In this document: piece after piece, positions 34,800 to 44,490 of the stretch
Position numbering within the stretch: position 1 is the first letter of the stretch
How the letters are laid out: each line of letters begins with the position of its first letter
IMG/VR virus record: IMGVR_UViG_3300011006_000010
Coordinates: 32,001-96,000 of that record
DNA length: 64,000 nucleotides
Reading direction: 5' to 3' (one strand)
Source: a virus
Taxonomy: Duplodnaviria; Caudoviricetes
Translations under genes and position numbers: made by a program
Notes under the pieces: model-generated
What the model was told of the DNA's origin: nothing
Databases searched by the model: none
The model's input: the letters and a program-made list of their open reading frames with translations, nothing else

Positions 34800-35639
34800 A
34801 TGTCAAAAATCCCAGATATCTCACACTACCATCCAGTATCTGATTGGGCTAAAGTAAAAGCGAACTGTTCATTTTTGATTTCTAAAGCAACTCAGGGAAT
34901 CAGCTATATTGACCCTACTCTCGATTCATTCATCAAAGGCTGTGAAGCTAATAAAATTCCTTACTATCTATATGTCTATCTAAACAAGGGAGACGAACTT
35001 CTCCAGGCTAAATATATGGTTTCTGTGTGCAAATCTAAGGTCGGGTCATATTTTCGTGGGTATGCTCTTGATGTAGAAGCAGGTAATTCTGCGACAAATG
35101 TTAAAAATGCATTAGATTATATCTGTAATCAGTCTCCTAAGGCTCTGCTTTATACGATGTATTCACAGTATGACAAATATAAAGCTGTTATCACTTCTCG
35201 CCCTAGCAACTGTGCATGGTGGGAAGCTAGATATGGTGCAAACAATGGTTCATACAGTGCTACGTATCCATGTCATACCGGAGTTGATCTTCATCAGTAT
35301 ACAAGCAAAGGAACCTGTAGTGGAGTCAGCGGCTCTTCAGTTGACTTAAATAGAGTTTCTGGTGCAAAACCATTGTCATGGTTTACGGATGGCGTCAAGA
35401 CTGCTACGGCTTCAACTACTACTAAGACTACAGTAAGTTATTATTCAAAATATAGTGGAAAATCTGTAAGAATTGATACTATTTTCAAAGCAATTGGAGT
35501 ACCTGCCAAATACAGAGGCACATACAAGAAGAGGCTGCCAGTAGCTAAGAAGAATGGGATCTCTAACTACACAGGTACGGCAGCACAGAACAAAAAGCTG
35601 ATTGATTTAGCAAAGAAAGGTAAATTAGTTAAAGCATGA
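34800..35639 (+). CDS. GH25 muramidase endolysin with basic C-terminal cell-wall-binding domain
   Basis: 'PDISHY', 'KATQG.SYIDP', 'LDVE', 'HQYTS.G', 'VDLN' GH25 motifs. Confidence 0.9.
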   Translation: MSKIPDISHYHPVSDWAKVKANCSFLISKATQGISYIDPTLDSFIKGCEANKIPYYLYVYLNKGDELLQAKYMVSVCKSKVGSYFRGYALDVEAGNSATNVKNALDYICNQSPKALLYTMYSQYDKYKAVITSRPSNCAWWEARYGANNGSYSATYPCHTGVDLHQYTSKGTCSGVSGSSVDLNRVSGAKPLSWFTDGVKTATASTTTKTTVSYYSKYSGKSVRIDTIFKAIGVPAKYRGTYKKRLPVAKKNGISNYTGTAAQNKKLIDLAKKGKLVKA

Positions 35640-36520
35640 TTAAAGCGAGTTTAGTATATTATATCAAAGGACTGCCCTTAACATATGCGGTTCAGAAAAC
35701 ATATGTTGGAACAAAGTATGTTTATGCACTTCAGAGAAAAGACAAAGACGCATGGTTGTCAAGATGTCTGATCGAAGGACGTACCGCAACCTATGTAGAC
35801 CATATGGTTCTCAAGAATTTTGGACATGGACAGACATTAGATTGGTATCAATGGAATGAAAAAGATTATTGGCTTGTCGTTTGTAAAGCAACAGATATCG
35901 ACAAGTATAAATGGGGAGTTCAGATTGGGCGTGTGGAATATGTTCCAGACGGCACTATTAACTATACGGAGATTGAAAGATTGTCTTCATGTAATAGAGC
36001 AAGAAAATCTGCAAAATCCCTTGGAGAAATCAAACGTTTAGATGGCGGTCTATCACCAAATAAGAAATATCTTTTTATTTGGGTATGCACGAAGAAGAAC
36101 AAGCGCATGTTTACATTATACGATTTTGACAAAATCAATGAAGCATGGGATAAGAAAATCGATGCTTCATCTAAATATGTTGCTTGTGATTTAGACGAGA
36201 TCAAAAACGCTAATCTAAAGAGTCAAGACAACGGTATTGTCCAAAGAGTTGCATATGGATCATGTCAAGGTTTGGCTATCGATAATATCAAGAATGTTTA
36301 TCTTATCGGCGGAGCCATTGGCAGAAGAACATCAATTCTGAAATTTAAATATGGTGATGGGTGGAAAACTCCATCAACGACCTTGGTTTCAATTGGTAAG
36401 AATTTTACTAAGCATAGTGAAACTGAAGGTATTCAGGTTAAAGGCGATACTATTTATTTTAGTATTACCGACAAATCAAAAAAGGATAGATATATTATCT
36501 ATTCAATCGAAAAATACTAA
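35636..36520 (+). CDS. Helveticin-J-like (class III bacteriocin family/beta-propeller) protein
   Basis: Motif series 'GHGQTL', 'W..QIGRV', 'NRA', 'R.DGGLSP..KY', 'GS.QG..ID', 'ETEGIQV' recalls helveticin J-family proteins; ATGA overlap with endolysin. Confidence 0.6.
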   Translation: MIKASLVYYIKGLPLTYAVQKTYVGTKYVYALQRKDKDAWLSRCLIEGRTATYVDHMVLKNFGHGQTLDWYQWNEKDYWLVVCKATDIDKYKWGVQIGRVEYVPDGTINYTEIERLSSCNRARKSAKSLGEIKRLDGGLSPNKKYLFIWVCTKKNKRMFTLYDFDKINEAWDKKIDASSKYVACDLDEIKNANLKSQDNGIVQRVAYGSCQGLAIDNIKNVYLIGGAIGRRTSILKFKYGDGWKTPSTTLVSIGKNFTKHSETEGIQVKGDTIYFSITDKSKKDRYIIYSIEKY

Positions 36521-36573
36521 TATATCAAAAGCATTCATAATATAGCGTAGGCTATATTCAAAGGAGTGAAATT

Positions 36574-36762
36574 ATGCTGCCAGATATATATAAACGTGTC
36601 AGAGAAGACGCAGTTCCTCTTTGGACACGAGATGGGACACAACATTTTCCAAAATCTTTATATGGATTACCTTTGAAAATAATTGATCAAACTCCAACGA
36701 CTTATACGTTGAAGTTTACTGAAGAATATATCTTCGAGATGAAAAAAGATGATTGTTATTGA
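36574..36762 (+). CDS. Small hypothetical protein
   Basis: AAGGAG RBS; 62 aa. Confidence 0.5.
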   Translation: MLPDIYKRVREDAVPLWTRDGTQHFPKSLYGLPLKIIDQTPTTYTLKFTEEYIFEMKKDDCY

Positions 36763-36808
36763 TTGACTCAGAGATGTATATGTGATATCTTATCATCAAT
36801 GAGTGTAG

Positions 36809-36845
36809 AGGGGAGTATGGCTTAATGTCATATTCCCCTTTTTTT
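36809..36845 (+). terminator. Intrinsic terminator closing the late/lysis operon
   Basis: 13-bp stem AGGGGAGTATGGC/GTCATATTCCCCT (two G-U) plus T-run. Confidence 0.8.
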
Positions 36846-36852
36846 GATTTTC

Positions 36853-36861
36853 TGTTATAAT
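36853..36861 (+). promoter_or_regulatory. Extended -10 promoter (TGn-TATAAT), probably giving a leaderless mRNA
   Basis: TGTTATAAT then 6 nt to ATG 36868; no RBS. Confidence 0.55.
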
Positions 36862-36867
36862 GTATAT

Positions 36868-37419
36868 ATGGATAAATATTATTTAAATGAAGCAATCGAA
36901 TATACTTGCGACGTCCTTGACATTTCTAAGCCAAAACTTAGAACATCTATGCTTAGAGAAGATAGAGGAAAGACAGCTAGATATTATATTACTGACAGAG
37001 GTGGAAGATTATTTATTGATCTGAAATCTTTTACGGATATGCGTCAATTATATTTCACTCTTTTTCATGAGCTATTTCACCATTTTCAAGCTATTAAATG
37101 TGGGATGTATAAGTCTCAAGGAAATAGCAGTTCAATTGATTTTGATGAAGAGCATATAGATTTTTGGGCACAGGAATTGAGTAATTACAAAGCTAACGGT
37201 GTAGAAGGATACGACGATCAATACCTCGAATTGGATTCTAACGCATTTGGAATCTATATGTCTAAAGTATTATGGAATCTAGATGTCCCGTATAATTCAG
37301 AGGCTGTAGACAGAGATAAACTTATTGAATGTGTGGTCAAAATAAAAAAAGCAATACCCGCACAAGATGTGCTAGGTATTGCTGAAGACTATGATTTATT
37401 GGATCTAGGAGAAAATTAG
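36868..37419 (+). CDS. HExxH zinc metallopeptidase (ImmA/IrrE-like)
   Basis: 'TLFHELFHHFQ' plus downstream 'ELDSNAFG'. Confidence 0.65.
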   Translation: MDKYYLNEAIEYTCDVLDISKPKLRTSMLREDRGKTARYYITDRGGRLFIDLKSFTDMRQLYFTLFHELFHHFQAIKCGMYKSQGNSSSIDFDEEHIDFWAQELSNYKANGVEGYDDQYLELDSNAFGIYMSKVLWNLDVPYNSEAVDRDKLIECVVKIKKAIPAQDVLGIAEDYDLLDLGEN

Positions 37420-37434
37420 TTTCTCCTTTTTTTT
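37407..37434 (+). terminator. Intrinsic terminator
   Basis: AGGAGAAA/TTTCTCCT stem plus T7. Confidence 0.7.
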
Positions 37435-37442
37435 GTGGAAAA

Positions 37443-37583
37443 TTATCTATTACCTTTTGCTCTATTATGTGTTTTACAGAGCATCGTGCAATTTGACAGG
37501 TTGGTTTCACCTTTCTTACCGTCAAGATAGTCTCTTACTGCCTGGATCTTCTGCTCAGGTGTAAATTTGGATTTTCTTTCCAT
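37443..37583 (-). pseudogene. 46-aa chimera: IS3-family OrfA N-terminus fused in frame to the C-terminal tail of an HNH nuclease
   Basis: Translates MERKSKFTPEQKIQAVRDYLDGKK|GETNLSNCTMLCKTHNRAKGNR; not in the ORF track. Confidence 0.7.
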
Positions 37584-37645
37584 ACAAAAATCACTCCTTT
37601 CAACAGTTTACTTATTTAAACTGTCTACTTAGAGTGATCATATCA
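37509..37645 (-). mobile_element. Truncated IS3-family (IS150-group-like) left end
   Basis: IRL-like TGATATGATCACTCTAAGTAGACAG (37645-37621), AAGGAG RBS and OrfA HTH start; no transposase or IRR. Confidence 0.65.
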
Positions 37646-37672
37646 AATTGCTCCTGTGTGGTCTTTATAAAT

Positions 37673-38590
37673 CTACGAACGCAACTTGATCTCCACCGAA
37701 AGAATAAAGTCCGCCATTGCCATAGCTGCGTTTACAAATAGCCTTGCGTGGTGTTCATCTATGGCTATTCTGGTTGCGCCTACACCGTGGGCGTCACTGT
37801 CTTTATTCCTCATCTCAGAAATTGCAGATACAATTTTCTCCAAACCTGAGAGCAGAGTGTTAATACGCCTGTCCGTGTTAGCATCTCCATGCATATTGTA
37901 TAGATTTTTGACCTGTTTATACAAATTGCTAATTCTACCGGAAGTCGAAGGAGTTTCTCCCTTTTTCTCTATGACATAGCAGAATACTTCTTCAAGCAGT
38001 GTACGCGATTTTGTTATGGCACTGTCATAGTTGTGCTGGTCTACATCGTTCAAGGCTCGCGTAGAAATACTTCTAATATATTCACGATCAATATTTCTGA
38101 TTTTCGGTGCTTGGACTTCGACTTTTGCACCTATCTTTCTGACAACAAAATGATCGCCTGTAGAAACAAGTTCATGTCCGCCAAAATACAATGTGCCGTT
38201 GATTTTTTCAATGATGGTCTGAACAAAATAATTATATGCGGTTTCTATTACGCTTGCCTCATGACCTGTTAGCACACTGGAGAATTGCTGTTTCCCAAAT
38301 AGATATGCTAAAAAATCAGAGCATCGGTTGACCTTTATACAGTGTTCAAAAAGGTTGTCAAGGTATTGCCAACGGCTGAGATTTACACCTCCCCAGCTAT
38401 AAGTCATTGGCAATCCGAATAGCGTAGATAATTCACATAAATTCGGGCCGCTCAAATATGGCATGGAAATCTGAATCTTTGTGTGGTTATCACTAAATTC
38501 ATATTCTTCAAATTTTGTATCTCCATCCAGAATGGCGTATATCTCCTTGTTCATCAACAATCTAAATGGATTCTGAGTTTCTTTTTCCAT
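37673..38590 (-). CDS. Abi_C/AbiJ-like HEPN abortive-infection protein
   Basis: 'AITKSRTLLEEV' and HEPN Rx6H motif 'RNKDSDAH'; ATG 38590 behind a TAGGAG RBS overlapping the S-gene stop. Confidence 0.8.
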   Translation of the reverse strand: MEKETQNPFRLLMNKEIYAILDGDTKFEEYEFSDNHTKIQISMPYLSGPNLCELSTLFGLPMTYSWGGVNLSRWQYLDNLFEHCIKVNRCSDFLAYLFGKQQFSSVLTGHEASVIETAYNYFVQTIIEKINGTLYFGGHELVSTGDHFVVRKIGAKVEVQAPKIRNIDREYIRSISTRALNDVDQHNYDSAITKSRTLLEEVFCYVIEKKGETPSTSGRISNLYKQVKNLYNMHGDANTDRRINTLLSGLEKIVSAISEMRNKDSDAHGVGATRIAIDEHHARLFVNAAMAMADFILSVEIKLRS

Positions 38591-38600
38591 ACCAACACTC

Positions 38601-40043
38601 CTAATCAACACAGGTGTCTATGTACGATATAGCAGCTGCTTCATCTTCCTCTATGGCTATCTCGACTGCCCGTACTGCCGTTGCGATAAGTTTCTCCGCC
38701 TGTCTGCGAAGAGCAAAGGATTTCTGTACCTTTTCGGCTATGTCTTTTTGTGACATATCGTCAATAAGTGGCAAAGGCATGGATAGTAAAAAGTCTTTCG
38801 ATATAGCTGTCAAAATTGTTCCGGAGCAACGCTGTTTCATAAGTGCTTGAATCGGTTCAGACTTAAATAGCACCAACAAAGTCTCGGAGTTGATGTGATC
38901 CGAATCAATAACATAAAAACCAGTTGAGCAAAGCGCGTTGTGGTAATCATCCGTTATCAGTGCGCAGCTTTGCAGCGAGCCTTCGATAGACGATATAATC
39001 ACTTGACCTTTATTGACTTTTCTCCTTGCTCTTGTAGGTAAGTCTTTGCCATGGATTTTTTCAACGCCATAGACATTACCAAACATACCTACATTTGCCA
39101 ACTCTATATATTGATAATCCTTTTTCTCATCAGGCACGTAATTGGCATCATGAATGTCGCATAATGTTCCGACCGATTCTGTGGTATTTAATCTTTTTTC
39201 TATGTCCTCATACTTCGGTTGGTAATATTCCGCATCCAGTCTGCCTGAGGTGCCGAAGGATTCTGAAAGTAACTTTTCAGAAATGCCGTTTTTTGACACC
39301 ATTGCTGAATCAAATCCTAAAGCAGACAAAAGAAATGTTTTTGCCTCTTCATGTACTTCAGATTCCTTTACCACCTTATCATGAGCAGACTGTATTACTT
39401 CCTTGATTTGCTCCTGTAAGCAGGATGAAAAAATCGGAATAAGTAATTGATCAAAATCCTCCAGCAAAAGTCCGGTCTGAGCTGCCCCGCGTTTGAATTT
39501 CTGAATTTGATTCTGACCATACTTCGTCTTTATGAAGGTAAGGAGTACTTCCGGGAGAATATCTGTTTGTTTGCTTCTCATGATTGCCAACTTACAACTG
39601 CAAGTTGCTTCGGAGTCCGATGTGACAATTGCACTATTGCCGACTATCGCACCCACAATAGACATAAGCACATCTCCACGTTTAAGATGTGACCTTTTCA
39701 TGTGCGGATGATTAAACGTATTCGTGTCTATACAAACTGGCGACGCCGCTTCGATAAATATATTGTATATATCCTGACCTCGGTAATATGGGATACCTTT
39801 ATTGCGGAAAGCATCGCTAATCGACATATGATTTCCGTCAGAGACAGAAAATGATGCCGTAAAAGACTGCAATGTTTTTTCTTTTAGGAAATCGGACACT
39901 TCCAGATTTCCTTTTTTATAGAATTCTGCATCTATGCGAGCAGTTCTCTCAAGAGCAGAAAGATATATTTCGCTGCACTCCAGCCCATCCATCAAAGCCT
40001 TGTATTTGGCTTCATCGAAAGGTTCAATGGATGGGCTTATCAA
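38601..40043 (-). CDS. Restriction-modification specificity (S) subunit with two TRDs
   Basis: Duplicated 'RIDAEFY'/'RLDAEYY' and 'IP..Q..I' repeat halves; ATGA overlap with the RM gene. Confidence 0.85.
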   Translation of the reverse strand: MISPSIEPFDEAKYKALMDGLECSEIYLSALERTARIDAEFYKKGNLEVSDFLKEKTLQSFTASFSVSDGNHMSISDAFRNKGIPYYRGQDIYNIFIEAASPVCIDTNTFNHPHMKRSHLKRGDVLMSIVGAIVGNSAIVTSDSEATCSCKLAIMRSKQTDILPEVLLTFIKTKYGQNQIQKFKRGAAQTGLLLEDFDQLLIPIFSSCLQEQIKEVIQSAHDKVVKESEVHEEAKTFLLSALGFDSAMVSKNGISEKLLSESFGTSGRLDAEYYQPKYEDIEKRLNTTESVGTLCDIHDANYVPDEKKDYQYIELANVGMFGNVYGVEKIHGKDLPTRARRKVNKGQVIISSIEGSLQSCALITDDYHNALCSTGFYVIDSDHINSETLLVLFKSEPIQALMKQRCSGTILTAISKDFLLSMPLPLIDDMSQKDIAEKVQKSFALRRQAEKLIATAVRAVEIAIEEDEAAAISYIDTCVD

Positions 40044-42019
40044 AAAAAACTTAAACCTTCCTTTTTTGCAAATTCAGCAAATGCCTCGGCAATACCGTCC
40101 TCTGTCAGACCGTCATGATTATACAAATCATGATCGACTATCATATGACCATGTTCGTCGAGGATGATATGCCCCTCTCTGTCGGTACGCACAATCTTAT
40201 CGCCGGAACTATCCTTGCTCGGCTTCCGCATAGTGGCAAAGAATATAGGATAATCGTCCTTCTTCGGGCAGAGGGCATCATCCCACTTCTGGATGAACAG
40301 CACCGATGTCTTAGTCCCAGTATGCGGCTTGAATACATTTCCGTGCAATCCGACCACAGCAAGAATACGGCAGCGTTCCAAGATAAAGTCACGGATGTAC
40401 TTGTCGCTCGCATTATTAAACCGTCCCTGCGGCAGTACAATCGCCATTCGACCGCCAGGCTTCAGGAAAGAGAGGTTTCTTTCGATAAAGAGAATGTCCC
40501 TTCCGACCTTACTCCGATATTTACCTTTGGCATTTTTACCCAGCTCATATTTTGCGATGATACGGCTCTCTTTGATGTCCCCGGCAAAGGGCGGATTCGC
40601 CATAACGATATCGAAATTAAAATCCCGGTTCTCGTCCCTATTCGCGCGAAGCGCACGCAAGCCGCGCCAGCCCTCAAAGTAGATATCCTGCCACGCCTCA
40701 TCCTTTGTGGTATCATCCCAACGCTCATAATCAAGCGTATTCAGATGCATGACGTTCGTCCTGCCGTCTCCGGCAATTAGATTCAGTGTTCTTGCCACAC
40801 GAACAGCCTTTTCGTCAAAGTCAATGGCAAACACATTTTTGCGGACGTAATCCTCACATTCGGCAGGCTTCTTTTCTGTGGTGAACAGATGACTCTGCTC
40901 GATACCTTTCTCTTTCAGAATGCTTTTCCATACATAGAAGATTGTATGGACAGGAAAGCCGCATGAACCCGAAGCAGTGTCTATCATTTTCTCTGTCTTT
41001 TTTGGATTGAGCATACGGACGCACATATCAATCACATAGCGCGGCGTAAAGAACTGTCCCTTTTCGCCTTTTTGCGACTTGCTCATCAAATATTCGAAGG
41101 CATCGTCCACTACATCCAAATTGGAGTTGAACAGTTTCACGTCCTGCAGAGATGATACACACACCGAAAGGTGGGACGGCGTGAGCGCAATAACGGCATC
41201 GGACGCAAATACGCCCGGCCACTTATCTTTCGCCTTTTCAAACAGCGATTGGATATTTGCTTTCAAGTCTTCGTCCGTATCGCCATAATTACGGAATTCG
41301 AGCATCCGGCTGTGATCTCTGCCGCTCTCCATTTCGTCATATAGCTTGGTATAGATGAGCTTGAATACTTCCTCGAAAACATCCACTCCGGCATTCGCAA
41401 GGACTTCATCCTCCATTTCCTCAATCAGCCCCTTAAGGGACTTCTTTTCGCTAACGAGCTTGTCCTTTTTCACAAGGTCATCAATCGTCCAGCGTTCGGT
41501 CAGGATATCCTTCAGCTTCTGCGTGGCAGTAGGGATGTTCGGAATATCCTCAAAATAATTGGGATCTTTCCTATGGTAGAAAGAAATCTGCTGACCGTTT
41601 GTCCATACGCCCATTGTCGCGCCTGTGGCATTACAGTAGGACTTAAGCTGTTCCTTTCCATCAGAGAGCTTCGGTTTTTTTACTTCTATAATGATGTATT
41701 CCACATTAGGATGTGACTTTTCAAAAATCACTATATCGGCGCGTTTTATCTCTCGTCCGAAATGGATATGACGCTCCAGTTCCATCTGGTCGGTGGAATA
41801 GCCGTAATCATGAACGAGTGTGTAAATATAGAGCTGCCGAACAGCCTCCTCTGGCGTCAGCTTGATTTCCTTCTGCCGCACCAAGCATTGGATATAAGGT
41901 ACATCTGCGCCTTTAACGGTTTTTGTGTAAATCTTGCTTTCAATTGCCTGTACAGCCTCATTGCTGAAAAGAGAGCTGTTATGGCTGCTGTCTTTGAAAA
42001 GTTGTTCCAGTGAATACAT
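40040..42019 (-). CDS. Fused endonuclease-N6-adenine methyltransferase (HsdR_N-like PD-(D/E)xK plus N6_Mtase; Type IIB/IIG-like with separate S)
   Basis: 'RADIVIF...IEVKK' nuclease motif, 'GQFFTPR', motif I 'DTASGSCGF', motif IV 'NPPF'; no motor subunit nearby. Confidence 0.9.
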   Translation of the reverse strand: MYSLEQLFKDSSHNSSLFSNEAVQAIESKIYTKTVKGADVPYIQCLVRQKEIKLTPEEAVRQLYIYTLVHDYGYSTDQMELERHIHFGREIKRADIVIFEKSHPNVEYIIIEVKKPKLSDGKEQLKSYCNATGATMGVWTNGQQISFYHRKDPNYFEDIPNIPTATQKLKDILTERWTIDDLVKKDKLVSEKKSLKGLIEEMEDEVLANAGVDVFEEVFKLIYTKLYDEMESGRDHSRMLEFRNYGDTDEDLKANIQSLFEKAKDKWPGVFASDAVIALTPSHLSVCVSSLQDVKLFNSNLDVVDDAFEYLMSKSQKGEKGQFFTPRYVIDMCVRMLNPKKTEKMIDTASGSCGFPVHTIFYVWKSILKEKGIEQSHLFTTEKKPAECEDYVRKNVFAIDFDEKAVRVARTLNLIAGDGRTNVMHLNTLDYERWDDTTKDEAWQDIYFEGWRGLRALRANRDENRDFNFDIVMANPPFAGDIKESRIIAKYELGKNAKGKYRSKVGRDILFIERNLSFLKPGGRMAIVLPQGRFNNASDKYIRDFILERCRILAVVGLHGNVFKPHTGTKTSVLFIQKWDDALCPKKDDYPIFFATMRKPSKDSSGDKIVRTDREGHIILDEHGHMIVDHDLYNHDGLTEDGIAEAFAEFAKKEGLSFF

Positions 42020-42080
42020 AATAATTCTCCTATGCTTCTATTTTTCTTTGTCCGAAAAGTGTCACCACTGATGATACTTT

Positions 42081-42163
42081 TTATTTTGTCTCGATGTCCA
42101 GACCTTTGAAATGTTCCTTCATCTCATCTGTCATGCCCTGCGTCCCATGCAGACCTTCTACAT
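42081..42163 (-). pseudogene. Orphan 3' tail of an unknown donor gene
   Basis: Startless frame ..YVEGLHGTQGMTDEMKEHFKGLDIETK*, GC-richer than the upstream sequence. Confidence 0.4.
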
Positions 42164-42241
42164 ATCTATGTCTTCATATTGAGTATAGAATTCATCGTTC
42201 TTATTTTCTCTGGCTTTACTTAGATCTGCTGTTGTTGCCAT
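42158..42241 (-). pseudogene. 27-codon N-terminal stub of an EcoRI-family adenine methyltransferase
   Basis: MATTADLSKARENKNDEFYTQYEDIDM* matches the M.EcoRI-family start 'L.KAK..K.DEFYTQY.DI'; AGGAAGGT RBS. Confidence 0.8.
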
Positions 42242-42271
42242 GTTAATTACCTTCCTAAACAATATAAGATA

Positions 42272-42300
42272 ATTATATTAAATCGAGATGGTAATTTCAA
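42272..42300 (-). promoter_or_regulatory. SigmaA-type promoter for the R-M/Abi cassette
   Basis: TTGAAA-17 bp-TATAAT. Confidence 0.7.
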
Positions 42301-42348
42301 TTGTTAGAAAGAACAAAAAAAAGCGCAAGCAATAAAGCTCACGCAGAT

Positions 42349-42405
42349 TTTTTAACATATTAATGCATTACTTGTGGTGCAAATAGTGTATTAATATGTT
42401 AAAAA
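42349..42405. repeat. 26-bp imperfect inverted repeat
   Basis: TTTTTAACATATTAATGCATTACTTG / CAAATAGTGTATTAATATGTTAAAAA. Confidence 0.8.
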
Positions 42406-42420
42406 GAAAATTTAAATTAT

Positions 42421-42755
42421 GTTGATGTAATCAATGTTTTTCCGTTTAAATGATGTAGGTTAGAACGAGCCTTTATTAGTTGATTTTTTACATCATTTCA
42501 TACATCATACGCATAAATTTTGCGATTAAAATTGCATTGATAAATACAGCATATTTCTCAATAACAGAAATTTGAACTTATAAATTATTTGAAATAACCG
42601 AAAAAACATTGATGAAACCAACATTTTTTTACTTTTTTGTATTTTATTGATTTAATGACTAAAGTAAAATACGATTCAAAATTTAGTTGATTTTTTCAAT
42701 ATATTTTTTAGTTTCAATTTCGAGAATTTCTGTCTTACATCATTTTACATCATTT
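42421..42755. other. Putative attP region with integrase arm-type repeats
   Basis: TACATCA(TTT) at 42489, 42501, 42736, 42746 and inverted at 42423 and 42448; TTAGTTGATTTTTT at 42476 and 42683; AT-rich; directly 3' of the integrase. Confidence 0.6.
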
Positions 42756-43853
42756 ATAAACATTATTTAGAGAGTTAATAGATTCCTTGTCAAAATCCTG
42801 CGTAACATAAACATCTAAAGTTACCATTACGCTCTTATGACCAAGATAACTCTGAATTACTTTAGGATTGACTCCCTTTTTAAACAAAAGAGTAGCGAAC
42901 GTATGTCTCAGCATATGCATATGAAGCTTTGGAAAGTCAGGATATTTTTTAACGATTTCTTCATAAAGCCTGCGAAGAGCAGAATTTGCAGACGATGAAG
43001 TTACACAGTTCCCTCTAGCGTTGATAAATAGCAAATTAGAATCTGTTTCTGTTCTAAATTTTAACTCATTGACAATAGCCTCTTTCGCCATGTTGTTAAG
43101 TGGAATTTTCCTTTTTGAAGTTTGTGTTTTCAGGTTGCTTAACTTATGCCCCTTGCCAGATTCGTAAATCATTTGAGAGTTAACATCTAGATGATCTTCA
43201 TGAATGTCTTCTAGACACAACCCAAAACATTCGCCACTTCTCATTCCAGTTGCAAGCACCAGCTTAAACAGATTCAAATACTTTACCTGATAAATTCCAG
43301 CATAATCTAAAAATATTTTTACCTGTTCCTCATTCAGACATTCAGTCTTTTTTGGAATTTGATGAGACTTTAATGGTATAGATGCAAACATATTTCTGTC
43401 GACATAACCAACTTGTACTGCATAATCATACATGCTGCTGACGATCGTTCTTGTAGCTCCACATAATCCAGCAGAATAATCTCTGATTCCATCATAAAGG
43501 GCGACTATATCACTGACCTTAACTTTGTTCACTCTGACATTACCGATCTTTTTATGTATATGATTCTTGTATACTGCATTATAGAAGGTAATCGTTGCTC
43601 CTCTAAGATCATTTTTCTTGAGCGAAATCCACTCCTCATATAACTGATCGATCTTAACGTTGCATTTAGTGTCGTTTAATTTTAAATTATCCTTTGATCT
43701 TTCCTCAATTAATTTCTTTTTAATACTTCTCAGACTGCTATCGTAGATATATCTTCTTTTGCCGAACCTATCAACGTACGTAGCCTGATACGATCCATCT
43801 TTTCTTTGTGTAATACCTTTCCCAAGATCCTTGCCTTTTAAACTTTTACCCAT
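42750..43853 (-). CDS. int: Tyrosine integrase with Tn916-type N-terminal arm-binding domain
   Basis: 'TGMRSGE', 'HMLRHTFAT', 'LGH...T..VY' catalytic residues; N-terminal 'QRKDG.Y'. Confidence 0.93.
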   Translation of the reverse strand: MGKSLKGKDLGKGITQRKDGSYQATYVDRFGKRRYIYDSSLRSIKKKLIEERSKDNLKLNDTKCNVKIDQLYEEWISLKKNDLRGATITFYNAVYKNHIHKKIGNVRVNKVKVSDIVALYDGIRDYSAGLCGATRTIVSSMYDYAVQVGYVDRNMFASIPLKSHQIPKKTECLNEEQVKIFLDYAGIYQVKYLNLFKLVLATGMRSGECFGLCLEDIHEDHLDVNSQMIYESGKGHKLSNLKTQTSKRKIPLNNMAKEAIVNELKFRTETDSNLLFINARGNCVTSSSANSALRRLYEEIVKKYPDFPKLHMHMLRHTFATLLFKKGVNPKVIQSYLGHKSVMVTLDVYVTQDFDKESINSLNNVYK

Positions 43854-43874
43854 ATTACTCCTTTCTTTATAAGT

Positions 43875-43925
43875 AAAAAAGGCTCGTGTATAACCACATT
43901 TATCTTATCACGGATACACGAGCTT
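43875..43925 (-). terminator. Terminator/attenuator hairpin separating int from the early operon
   Basis: GCTCGTGTAT/ATACACGAGC stem followed by U6 on the minus strand. Confidence 0.65.
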
Positions 43926-43938
43926 GCATAGTATGTTT

Positions 43939-44490
43939 TTAATAAATGGCGAAAGCTGCTCCAATCCTCTTTGCAATTTCTTCAGTTGAATATTCAAAGT
44001 TGTCATTAATAATAGTAAGGTCGCACATAAATCTTGCGTCTCTATGATTTTCAGTATCTCTTTTAAAACGAGCCTTTACTTCTTCTTTGTCATCTCTGAC
44101 TGCCATACACCTAGCCATTCTAGTATCGTCATCCACATCAAGATAGACGCTCTTGACAACGATACCGTTCTTGTTTGTCCATTCCTTAAATCGTTTCAGC
44201 CCGCTAGGCGTTAGAATTAAAACTTGATTTTCATCTTTGTGAATAGACGATTTTAAAGCTCCATAATGCCAGTCATTATAAGATTCGGTTTCAATAAAGA
44301 TATCGTTAGCCATACCCATAATGAATTCCCTTTCGGTATAGAAATGATAGTCAACTCCACTTTTCTCATCTTTTCTTTTTGGTCTTGTTGTGACTGTAAT
44401 GACTTTTTTTAAAATATCTTCTTTGTCAAAGTAATCTGCGAGAGTGGATTTGCCACTCCCACTTTTGCCAACCAGTACTAGAATCATCAA
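43939..44490 (-). CDS. gmk: Guanylate kinase-like protein
   Basis: P-loop 'GKSGSGKST'; 'TTRPKR..E..GVDYHF'. Confidence 0.88.
   Translation of the reverse strand: MMILVLVGKSGSGKSTLADYFDKEDILKKVITVTTRPKRKDEKSGVDYHFYTEREFIMGMANDIFIETESYNDWHYGALKSSIHKDENQVLILTPSGLKRFKEWTNKNGIVVKSVYLDVDDDTRMARCMAVRDDKEEVKARFKRDTENHRDARFMCDLTIINDNFEYSTEEIAKRIGAAFAIY

Follow-up and report, generated by a model that had tools for sequence, protein, structure and literature searches.

How did a set of full-length defence genes in a phage genome come to lie between the first 27 codons of one gene and the last 24 codons of another, both of them remnants of a different defence system? The question is raised by positions 37443-42300 of the window, a stretch of 64,000 nucleotides (nt) that covers bases 32001-96000 of a 118,568-bp virus record rated complete (IMGVR_UViG_3300011006_000010, Caudoviricetes). 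All of the features are on the minus strand, in the interval that separates the lysis genes from the integrase. The two gene remnants derive from an EcoRI-family N6-adenine methylase and from an HNH nuclease, and the block between them measures 4.65 kb and carries three genes that are full length when compared with their relatives. We conclude, with a probability of roughly 0.82, that a newer defence block replaced the interior of an older methylase-nuclease cassette through illegitimate recombination.

The upstream remnant follows a σ70-type promoter (TTGAAA-17-TATAAT, minus strand, 42272-42300), which agrees with the consensus at 11 of 12 bases and precedes an AGGAAGG ribosome-binding site. 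The 27 codons that come next (MATTADLSKARENKNDEFYTQYEDIDM; minus strand, 42161-42241, stop at 42160-42158) align to positions 2-21 of the EcoRI_methylase profile (PF13651; E-value (E) 7.5e-5) and contain the N-terminal K/N-D-E-F-Y-T-Q motif of that family. A 12-mer from this stub, KNDEFYTQYEDI, matches the intact methylases of two bacterial genomes (L109 and L110) exactly, and the stub DNA is 91% identical to that of L110 over 32 nt. The full-length PF13651 domain, with its S-adenosylmethionine (AdoMet)-binding and catalytic NPPF-type motifs, is not in the 27-codon stub. The promoter region does not resemble the sequence that precedes intact cassettes at other loci.

The downstream remnant (minus strand, 37446-37517) consists of the last 24 codons of a DUF262(GmrSD_N)-HNH restriction nuclease. 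It is joined in frame to the start of orfA of an insertion sequence (IS), giving a chimeric open reading frame (ORF) of 46 codons (minus strand, 37583-37446, stop at 37445-37443) in which residues 1-23 correspond to positions 1-23 of HTH_Tnp_1 and residues 23-46 to positions 24-47 of the 47-position HNH profile. A search with the 46-residue ORF against 5.8 billion proteins returned 148 matches (best E 1.8e-4). All 120 of the matches listed contain an HNH domain, and all align through the C-terminal half of the query; most of these are ~387 amino acids (aa) long and also contain PF03235 (DUF262/GmrSD_N), the shorter ones having HNH alone. The tail itself, KKGETNLSNCTMLCKTHNRAKGNR, is 79-87% identical to the C-termini of more than 100 DUF262+HNH proteins of ~387 aa. 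The matched nucleases terminate in ...ISNCTMLCKTHNRAKGNK/R, and the C-terminal end of the HNH motif, ...SNC.MLCKTHNRAKGN(K/R), is present in the tail, 20 of whose 24 residues are identical to those of P0004 and P0009. At the DNA level the tail is ~90% identical to the 3' ends of nuclease genes over 42-43 nt, and the similarity ends at the stop codon. The GmrSD_N (DUF262) domain and the first HNH histidine ('DADH') are both missing from the 24-residue tail, and the 118.6-kb genome contains no other piece of either gene. Both proteins have lost their catalytic parts, and the cassette is a remnant, not a working member of its family.

The methylase and the nuclease are regular partners elsewhere. 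We gathered nuclease loci from IMG/VR and from a sample of 399 Clostridia genomes, counting only those with enough upstream sequence. At 16 of these 17 loci (10 of 11 viral, 6 of 6 bacterial) the gene directly before the nuclease, on the same strand, encodes an EcoRI-family methylase, and the two genes are a few bases apart or overlap. PADLOC catalogues the pair as a type II restriction-modification (R-M) cassette, the nuclease as REase_II (PDLC03418, E 2.6e-86) and its partner as MTase_II (PDLC03297, E 3e-97). The stub and tail have the same gene order and strand as this cassette, of which only 27 and 24 codons survive in the phage. The best match of the 46-residue search, P0001 (82 aa; on five contigs of at most 162 kb), joins the first ~40 residues of the methylase in frame to the last ~42 residues of the nuclease, and is an independent deletion product of the same cassette. 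The first-pass annotation of this DNA, made without database searches, had reported a near-consensus promoter, a 27-codon N-terminus of the M.EcoRI family and an orphan HNH tail about 4.65 kb beyond it, all of which were recovered here. It had also stated that EcoRI-family methylases are often followed by DUF262-HNH genes, and had named a failure of the two stubs ever to share an operon as grounds for rejecting its reading; the 16 paired loci and the fusion P0001 bear the pairing out.

In two Clostridia genomes (L116 and L118) the DUF262-HNH nuclease gene is truncated, to ~100 and ~185 codons, and lacks a methylase within 1.5 kb; decay of the cassette seems to be common. On one viral contig (L085:6032-12065), ~3 kb from an integrase, genes for a SIR2_2 protein and a second GmrSD_N protein come after an intact cassette and form a small defence island with it. 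M.BanLI of Bifidobacterium animalis has been aligned with M.EcoRI, and its partner nuclease is a protein of 43.5 kDa (PMC3990576); that report is silent on the domains of the nuclease, and BanLI is a candidate example of the methylase-DUF262-HNH cassette.

The block between the two scars begins with the fragment of an unrelated gene, here called gene X, in a reading frame other than that of the stub (minus strand, 42084-42170; frame stop at 42083-42081). Its 27 residues encoded at 42170-42090 are 78% identical to residues 33-59 of P0121, a protein of 83 aa with no assigned family (by phmmer, 81% over 26 residues, E 3.8e-6), which is the sole relative of gene X among 1.84 billion representative proteins. 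From the position of the match in P0121, gene X is present here without its 5' part. Between the fragment and the next gene are 64 nt that contain a separate ribosome-binding site.

At its other edge the block ends in the left end of an IS3/IS150-type element (minus strand, 37518-37645; ~130 bp), comprising the inverted repeat TGATATGATCAC..., the leader and 22-23 codons from the start of orfA at 37583. The element begins 27 nt past the stop codon of the last gene of the block. A 164-nt query around this piece matched 11 of the 399 Clostridia genomes, in many cases at two places in the genome, and the majority of the matches begin at 37645-37650 (TGATATG...). The piece is 75-91% identical to the left ends of multi-copy elements. 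Related copies (L106, L108) run on into an HTH-bearing orfA and an rve-bearing orfB. The piece shares with the IS150 group of the IS3 family the inverted repeat starting with TG, the leader and the N-terminal HTH_Tnp_1 of orfA; unlike members of that family it has neither the rve transposase core nor the right inverted repeat, nor a target-site duplication, the element being truncated after ~130 bp, and rve was seen only in the related L106. Miniature elements consisting of both inverted ends only (e.g., TGATATGATCCC...GGGATCATATCA) occur in four Clostridia genomes (L100, L102, L103 and L104, at ~1501-1565 of each locus); they have no transposase and look like miniature inverted-repeat transposable elements.

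The junctions can be placed to within a few nucleotides. On the left, methylase homology is secure as far as the Ile codon at 42169-42167 and gene-X homology from the Tyr codon at 42164-42162, which puts the junction at ~42169-42162. On the right, at ~37520-37509, IS homology runs through ...YLDG (to 37518) and nuclease homology is secure from the Gly/Thr codons (37511 onward). Neither junction is at an IS end, and both lie within coding sequence; the joins are therefore products of neither transposition nor site-specific recombination, which leaves illegitimate joining. IS transposition as the source of the right junction was rejected on the same observation, the break lying within orfA instead of at the end of the IS. 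Capture through aberrant prophage excision was also considered and rejected, since the stub and promoter separate the block from the presumed attachment region. The breakpoints proposed in the first-pass annotation, inside genes at 42163 and 37509, fall within ~5-10 nt of these junctions, and its description of the block edges (the tail of an unrelated gene at one, ~135 bp of an IS3-like start fused in frame to the HNH tail at the other) agrees with the P0121-like fragment and with the ~130 bp at 37645 to ~37518. Its count of 38 G+C in 60 nt at 40621-40680, cited for a block richer in G+C than its surroundings, is correct: GC content is 42.8% in the block and 36.1% in the rest of the genome, 2.7 standard deviations above windows of the same size (standard deviation 2.5%). 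We treat this difference as no more than suggestive.

Three intact genes, all on the minus strand, make up the body of the block. The first (40040-42019) encodes a 659-aa fusion of an HSDR_N_2 nuclease-like domain and an N6_Mtase domain, which matches PADLOC MTase_I (PDLC03034) over its full length with 1125 bits and the NCBIfam models MADS2 and MADS5 only below their cut-offs. The second (38601-40043), whose start overlaps the stop of the first, encodes a 480-aa specificity (S) subunit with two target-recognition domains, identified by PADLOC as a type I specificity subunit. The third (37673-38611, with the ATG at 38590 the likely true start) is an AbiJ-type gene for a HEPN-like protein of the abortive infection (Abi) class; its product matches Abi_C (PF14355, E 8e-21) and, over residues 14-307, positions 4-277 of the 281 in the PADLOC profile PDLC02347 (E 7e-81). 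No separate HsdR subunit is encoded adjacent to these genes in the window, or in the related loci L003-L009, the rest of the phage genome not having been searched. Judged from domain content, the HSDR_N_2-N6_Mtase fusion and S may together constitute a BcgI-like enzyme encoded by two genes, and not a type I methylase. The block shares with type IIB (BcgI-like) and type I-like systems the predicted nuclease-methylase fusion and the two-domain S subunit, here followed by the HEPN-type gene.

These features are what would be expected had a minus-strand type II R-M cassette of ~2.3 kb, an EcoRI-family methylase followed by a DUF262/GmrSD_N-HNH nuclease, originally occupied the site. Its interior, from about codon 27 of the methylase to about codon 363 of the nuclease, would then have been swapped for a foreign segment of 4.65 kb, so that ~2.2 kb of the old cassette was lost as 4.65 kb was gained. 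The joining would have been non-homologous and non-transpositional, and may have been a single step or an insertion with a subsequent deletion. The new genes would now be transcribed from the old promoter, with its ribosome-binding site and 27-codon leader; the stretch from the promoter at 42300-42272 to the methylase-fusion gene contains no terminator-like site. If the old promoter does drive the block, the phage or its lysogen would have traded one DNA-targeting defence for an R-M-plus-Abi pair.

Several observations weigh against this account of a swap. Both scars are very short, at 27 and 24 codons, and both junctions are known from a metagenome assembly alone. Another region of the phage has a GC content of 42.7%, nearly equal to that of the block. 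No sister phage with the intact cassette at the same position was found. No donor was found either: the closest nucleotide match, at 82%, is confined to the methylase gene, and nowhere else did the three block genes occur together. Finally, the block itself contains a second promoter-like site ahead of the nuclease-methylase gene (TGGACA-18-TATCAT, 10 of 12 bases, minus strand, 42071-42100), which could make the old promoter irrelevant. The presence of a promoter, part of the earlier proposal of an inherited phage promoter, is borne out; transcription of the new genes from it is conjectural.

The shortness of the scars invites the suspicion that both matches are random similarities in non-coding DNA, and either of them, taken singly, is under the Pfam gathering score. 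Their DNA, however, is ~90% identical to real genes over 32-43 nt, and the similarity of the tail breaks off precisely where a gene should end. Because the two independent matches belong to the two genes of a single known cassette and agree with it in order and strand, chance is implausible, and we regard it as extremely improbable. A chimeric contig built from phage and bacterial reads, which we consider very unlikely, would be in keeping with a record that comes from metagenome assembly and with the IS sequence at the edge of the block, repeats being a common cause of misjoins. Such a chimera would have had to re-enter the same cassette beyond the block, in the same order and orientation, through two misjoins at unique sequences ~2.2 kb apart in the true genome; moreover, the IS piece is only 130 bp long and lies within the block, not at a contig end.

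Where and in how many events the scars arose is a different matter. The scarred arrangement may have formed earlier, in a bacterial defence island, a plasmid or another mobile element, and been taken up by the phage ready-made, in which case the swap was not a phage event and says nothing about the phage slot. Intact cassettes are indeed known both from bacterial genomes and from viral contigs, frequently amid other defence genes (as in L085, with SIR2_2 and GmrSD_N); IS3-type elements and AbiJ genes trailing R-M systems are typical of bacterial islands; and the cassette was found at this position in no sister phage. On the other hand, GC contents of 33% in the stub, 35% in the tail and 22% in the promoter region are phage-like and differ from that of the block, although these pieces are too short to count for much. 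The scars also adjoin phage features: at one end the terminator of the convergent gene, and at the other the AT-rich intergenic DNA that precedes the integrase. On balance we think a ready-made acquisition unlikely. A history in several steps is an open contender to which we would give slightly less than even odds: a longer fragment with a complete IS would have landed in or beside the cassette, and a later deletion, perhaps selected by packaging size, would have taken out what else there was of the IS, along with any extra donor DNA and the 5' portion of the nuclease gene. An IS cut within orfA whose left end keeps its abiJ neighbour 27 nt away, as is seen here, is the expected trace of a secondary deletion, and independent deletions in the cassette do occur (P0001, L116, L118). 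The sequence fits a single double-ended illegitimate event equally well, however, and no intermediate was found. Replacement of the cassette interior by illegitimate recombination remains the reading that we prefer.

The genes of the block point to more than one source. Relatives of the methylase fusion are found in gut and rumen Clostridia, the best, among 185,579 species genomes, being that of a Lachnospiraceae genome (L003; 92% aa and 82% nt identity), with which similarity breaks off no more than 12 nt from the start codon. The neighbourhoods of these relatives keep the S gene and contain no abiJ, IS or gene X nearby. The relatives of AbiJ, found in JGI metagenomes, reach at most 82% aa and 76% nt identity and always stand in other contexts, behind type I or type III R-M operons. 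Plasmids gave one distant match only, at 72% identity. On these sequence comparisons, the block is a mosaic of mobile defence genes whose direct donor lies outside the collections scanned. The first-pass annotation had envisaged replacement of the old system by a fragment of a bacterial chromosome and expected a donor carrying the complete upstream gene and IS. Replacement is upheld by the scars; a chromosomal origin is not, and no such donor was found in bacterial genomes. As a separate observation, AbiJ-gene relatives stand last in unlike R-M operons, among them a type I R-M-S operon (L119) and type III Mod-Res operons (L121, L126), with a further example in L131, which suggests that the AbiJ-type gene travels as an add-on to restriction systems.

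We also sought the same slot in other phages. A megablast search of 36500-44000 against 50,697 phage records gave zero matches, and IMG/VR contains no close relatives of the integrase, of the 191-residue product ORF191 or of the helveticin-like protein, and no occurrence of a degenerate DNA pattern of the nuclease-tail peptide. The identity of the integrase to those of reference phages is at most 31%. Sister phages with an intact methylase and HNH gene at this slot, which the earlier annotation had suggested looking for, were thus not found, and its description of the site as an exchangeable defence expression site rests on one case and has no support beyond it. The related idea that the gap between the lysis genes and the integrase serves as a promoter-equipped landing pad, in which any defence block that arrives is expressed from the retained promoter, ribosome-binding site and leader, is in our view doubtful. 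Were it true, phages would renew their defence cargo by an illegitimate 'promoter capture' and not by exchange of whole modules through flanking homology.

Temperate phages and their satellites, P2 and P4 for example, have defence hotspots or 'moron' slots, and the known hotspots have been defined across many related genomes with conserved flanks. The present locus resembles those of the P2/P4 type in having defence genes in the lysis-to-integrase gap on the strand opposite the late genes, served by a promoter and terminator of their own and differing in content from the backbone. It differs in that it is known from one genome and that the evidence for turnover is internal, in the form of the scars of the previous occupant. 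Defence genes of phages and prophages turn over quickly, and this turnover is usually inferred from relatives, which gives neither the order of events nor the mechanism. Here a single genome displays the older system, the newer system, non-homologous joining within genes and an IS fragment as a passenger. It is a clean, directional worked example of defence turnover, and as a single case it establishes no general rule. There is no new system or mechanism in it, the old and new systems and phage defence turnover all being of known kinds. It does suggest a route for mining genomes, by searching for defence genes bordered by the orphaned first and last codons of known cassettes.

The surroundings of the locus set its limits. 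Directly past the nuclease tail, the phage side is bounded by the terminator (plus strand, 37407-37427) of a convergent phage gene (plus strand, 36844-37419). On the other side, a terminator-like hairpin followed by a T-run (minus strand, 42323-42344) lies upstream of the cassette promoter and would insulate the cassette from transcription coming from the integrase side; the integrase gene occupies 42750-43853 on the minus strand. No tRNA gene that could mark an attachment site was found in the 64-kb window. The late and lysis genes on the plus strand reach 37419 and include a GH25-type lysin (34800-35639), a Helveticin_J-family gene (plus strand, 35636-36520; Pfam E 2.6e-15) that overlaps the endolysin stop, and a 191-aa gene of no assigned function.

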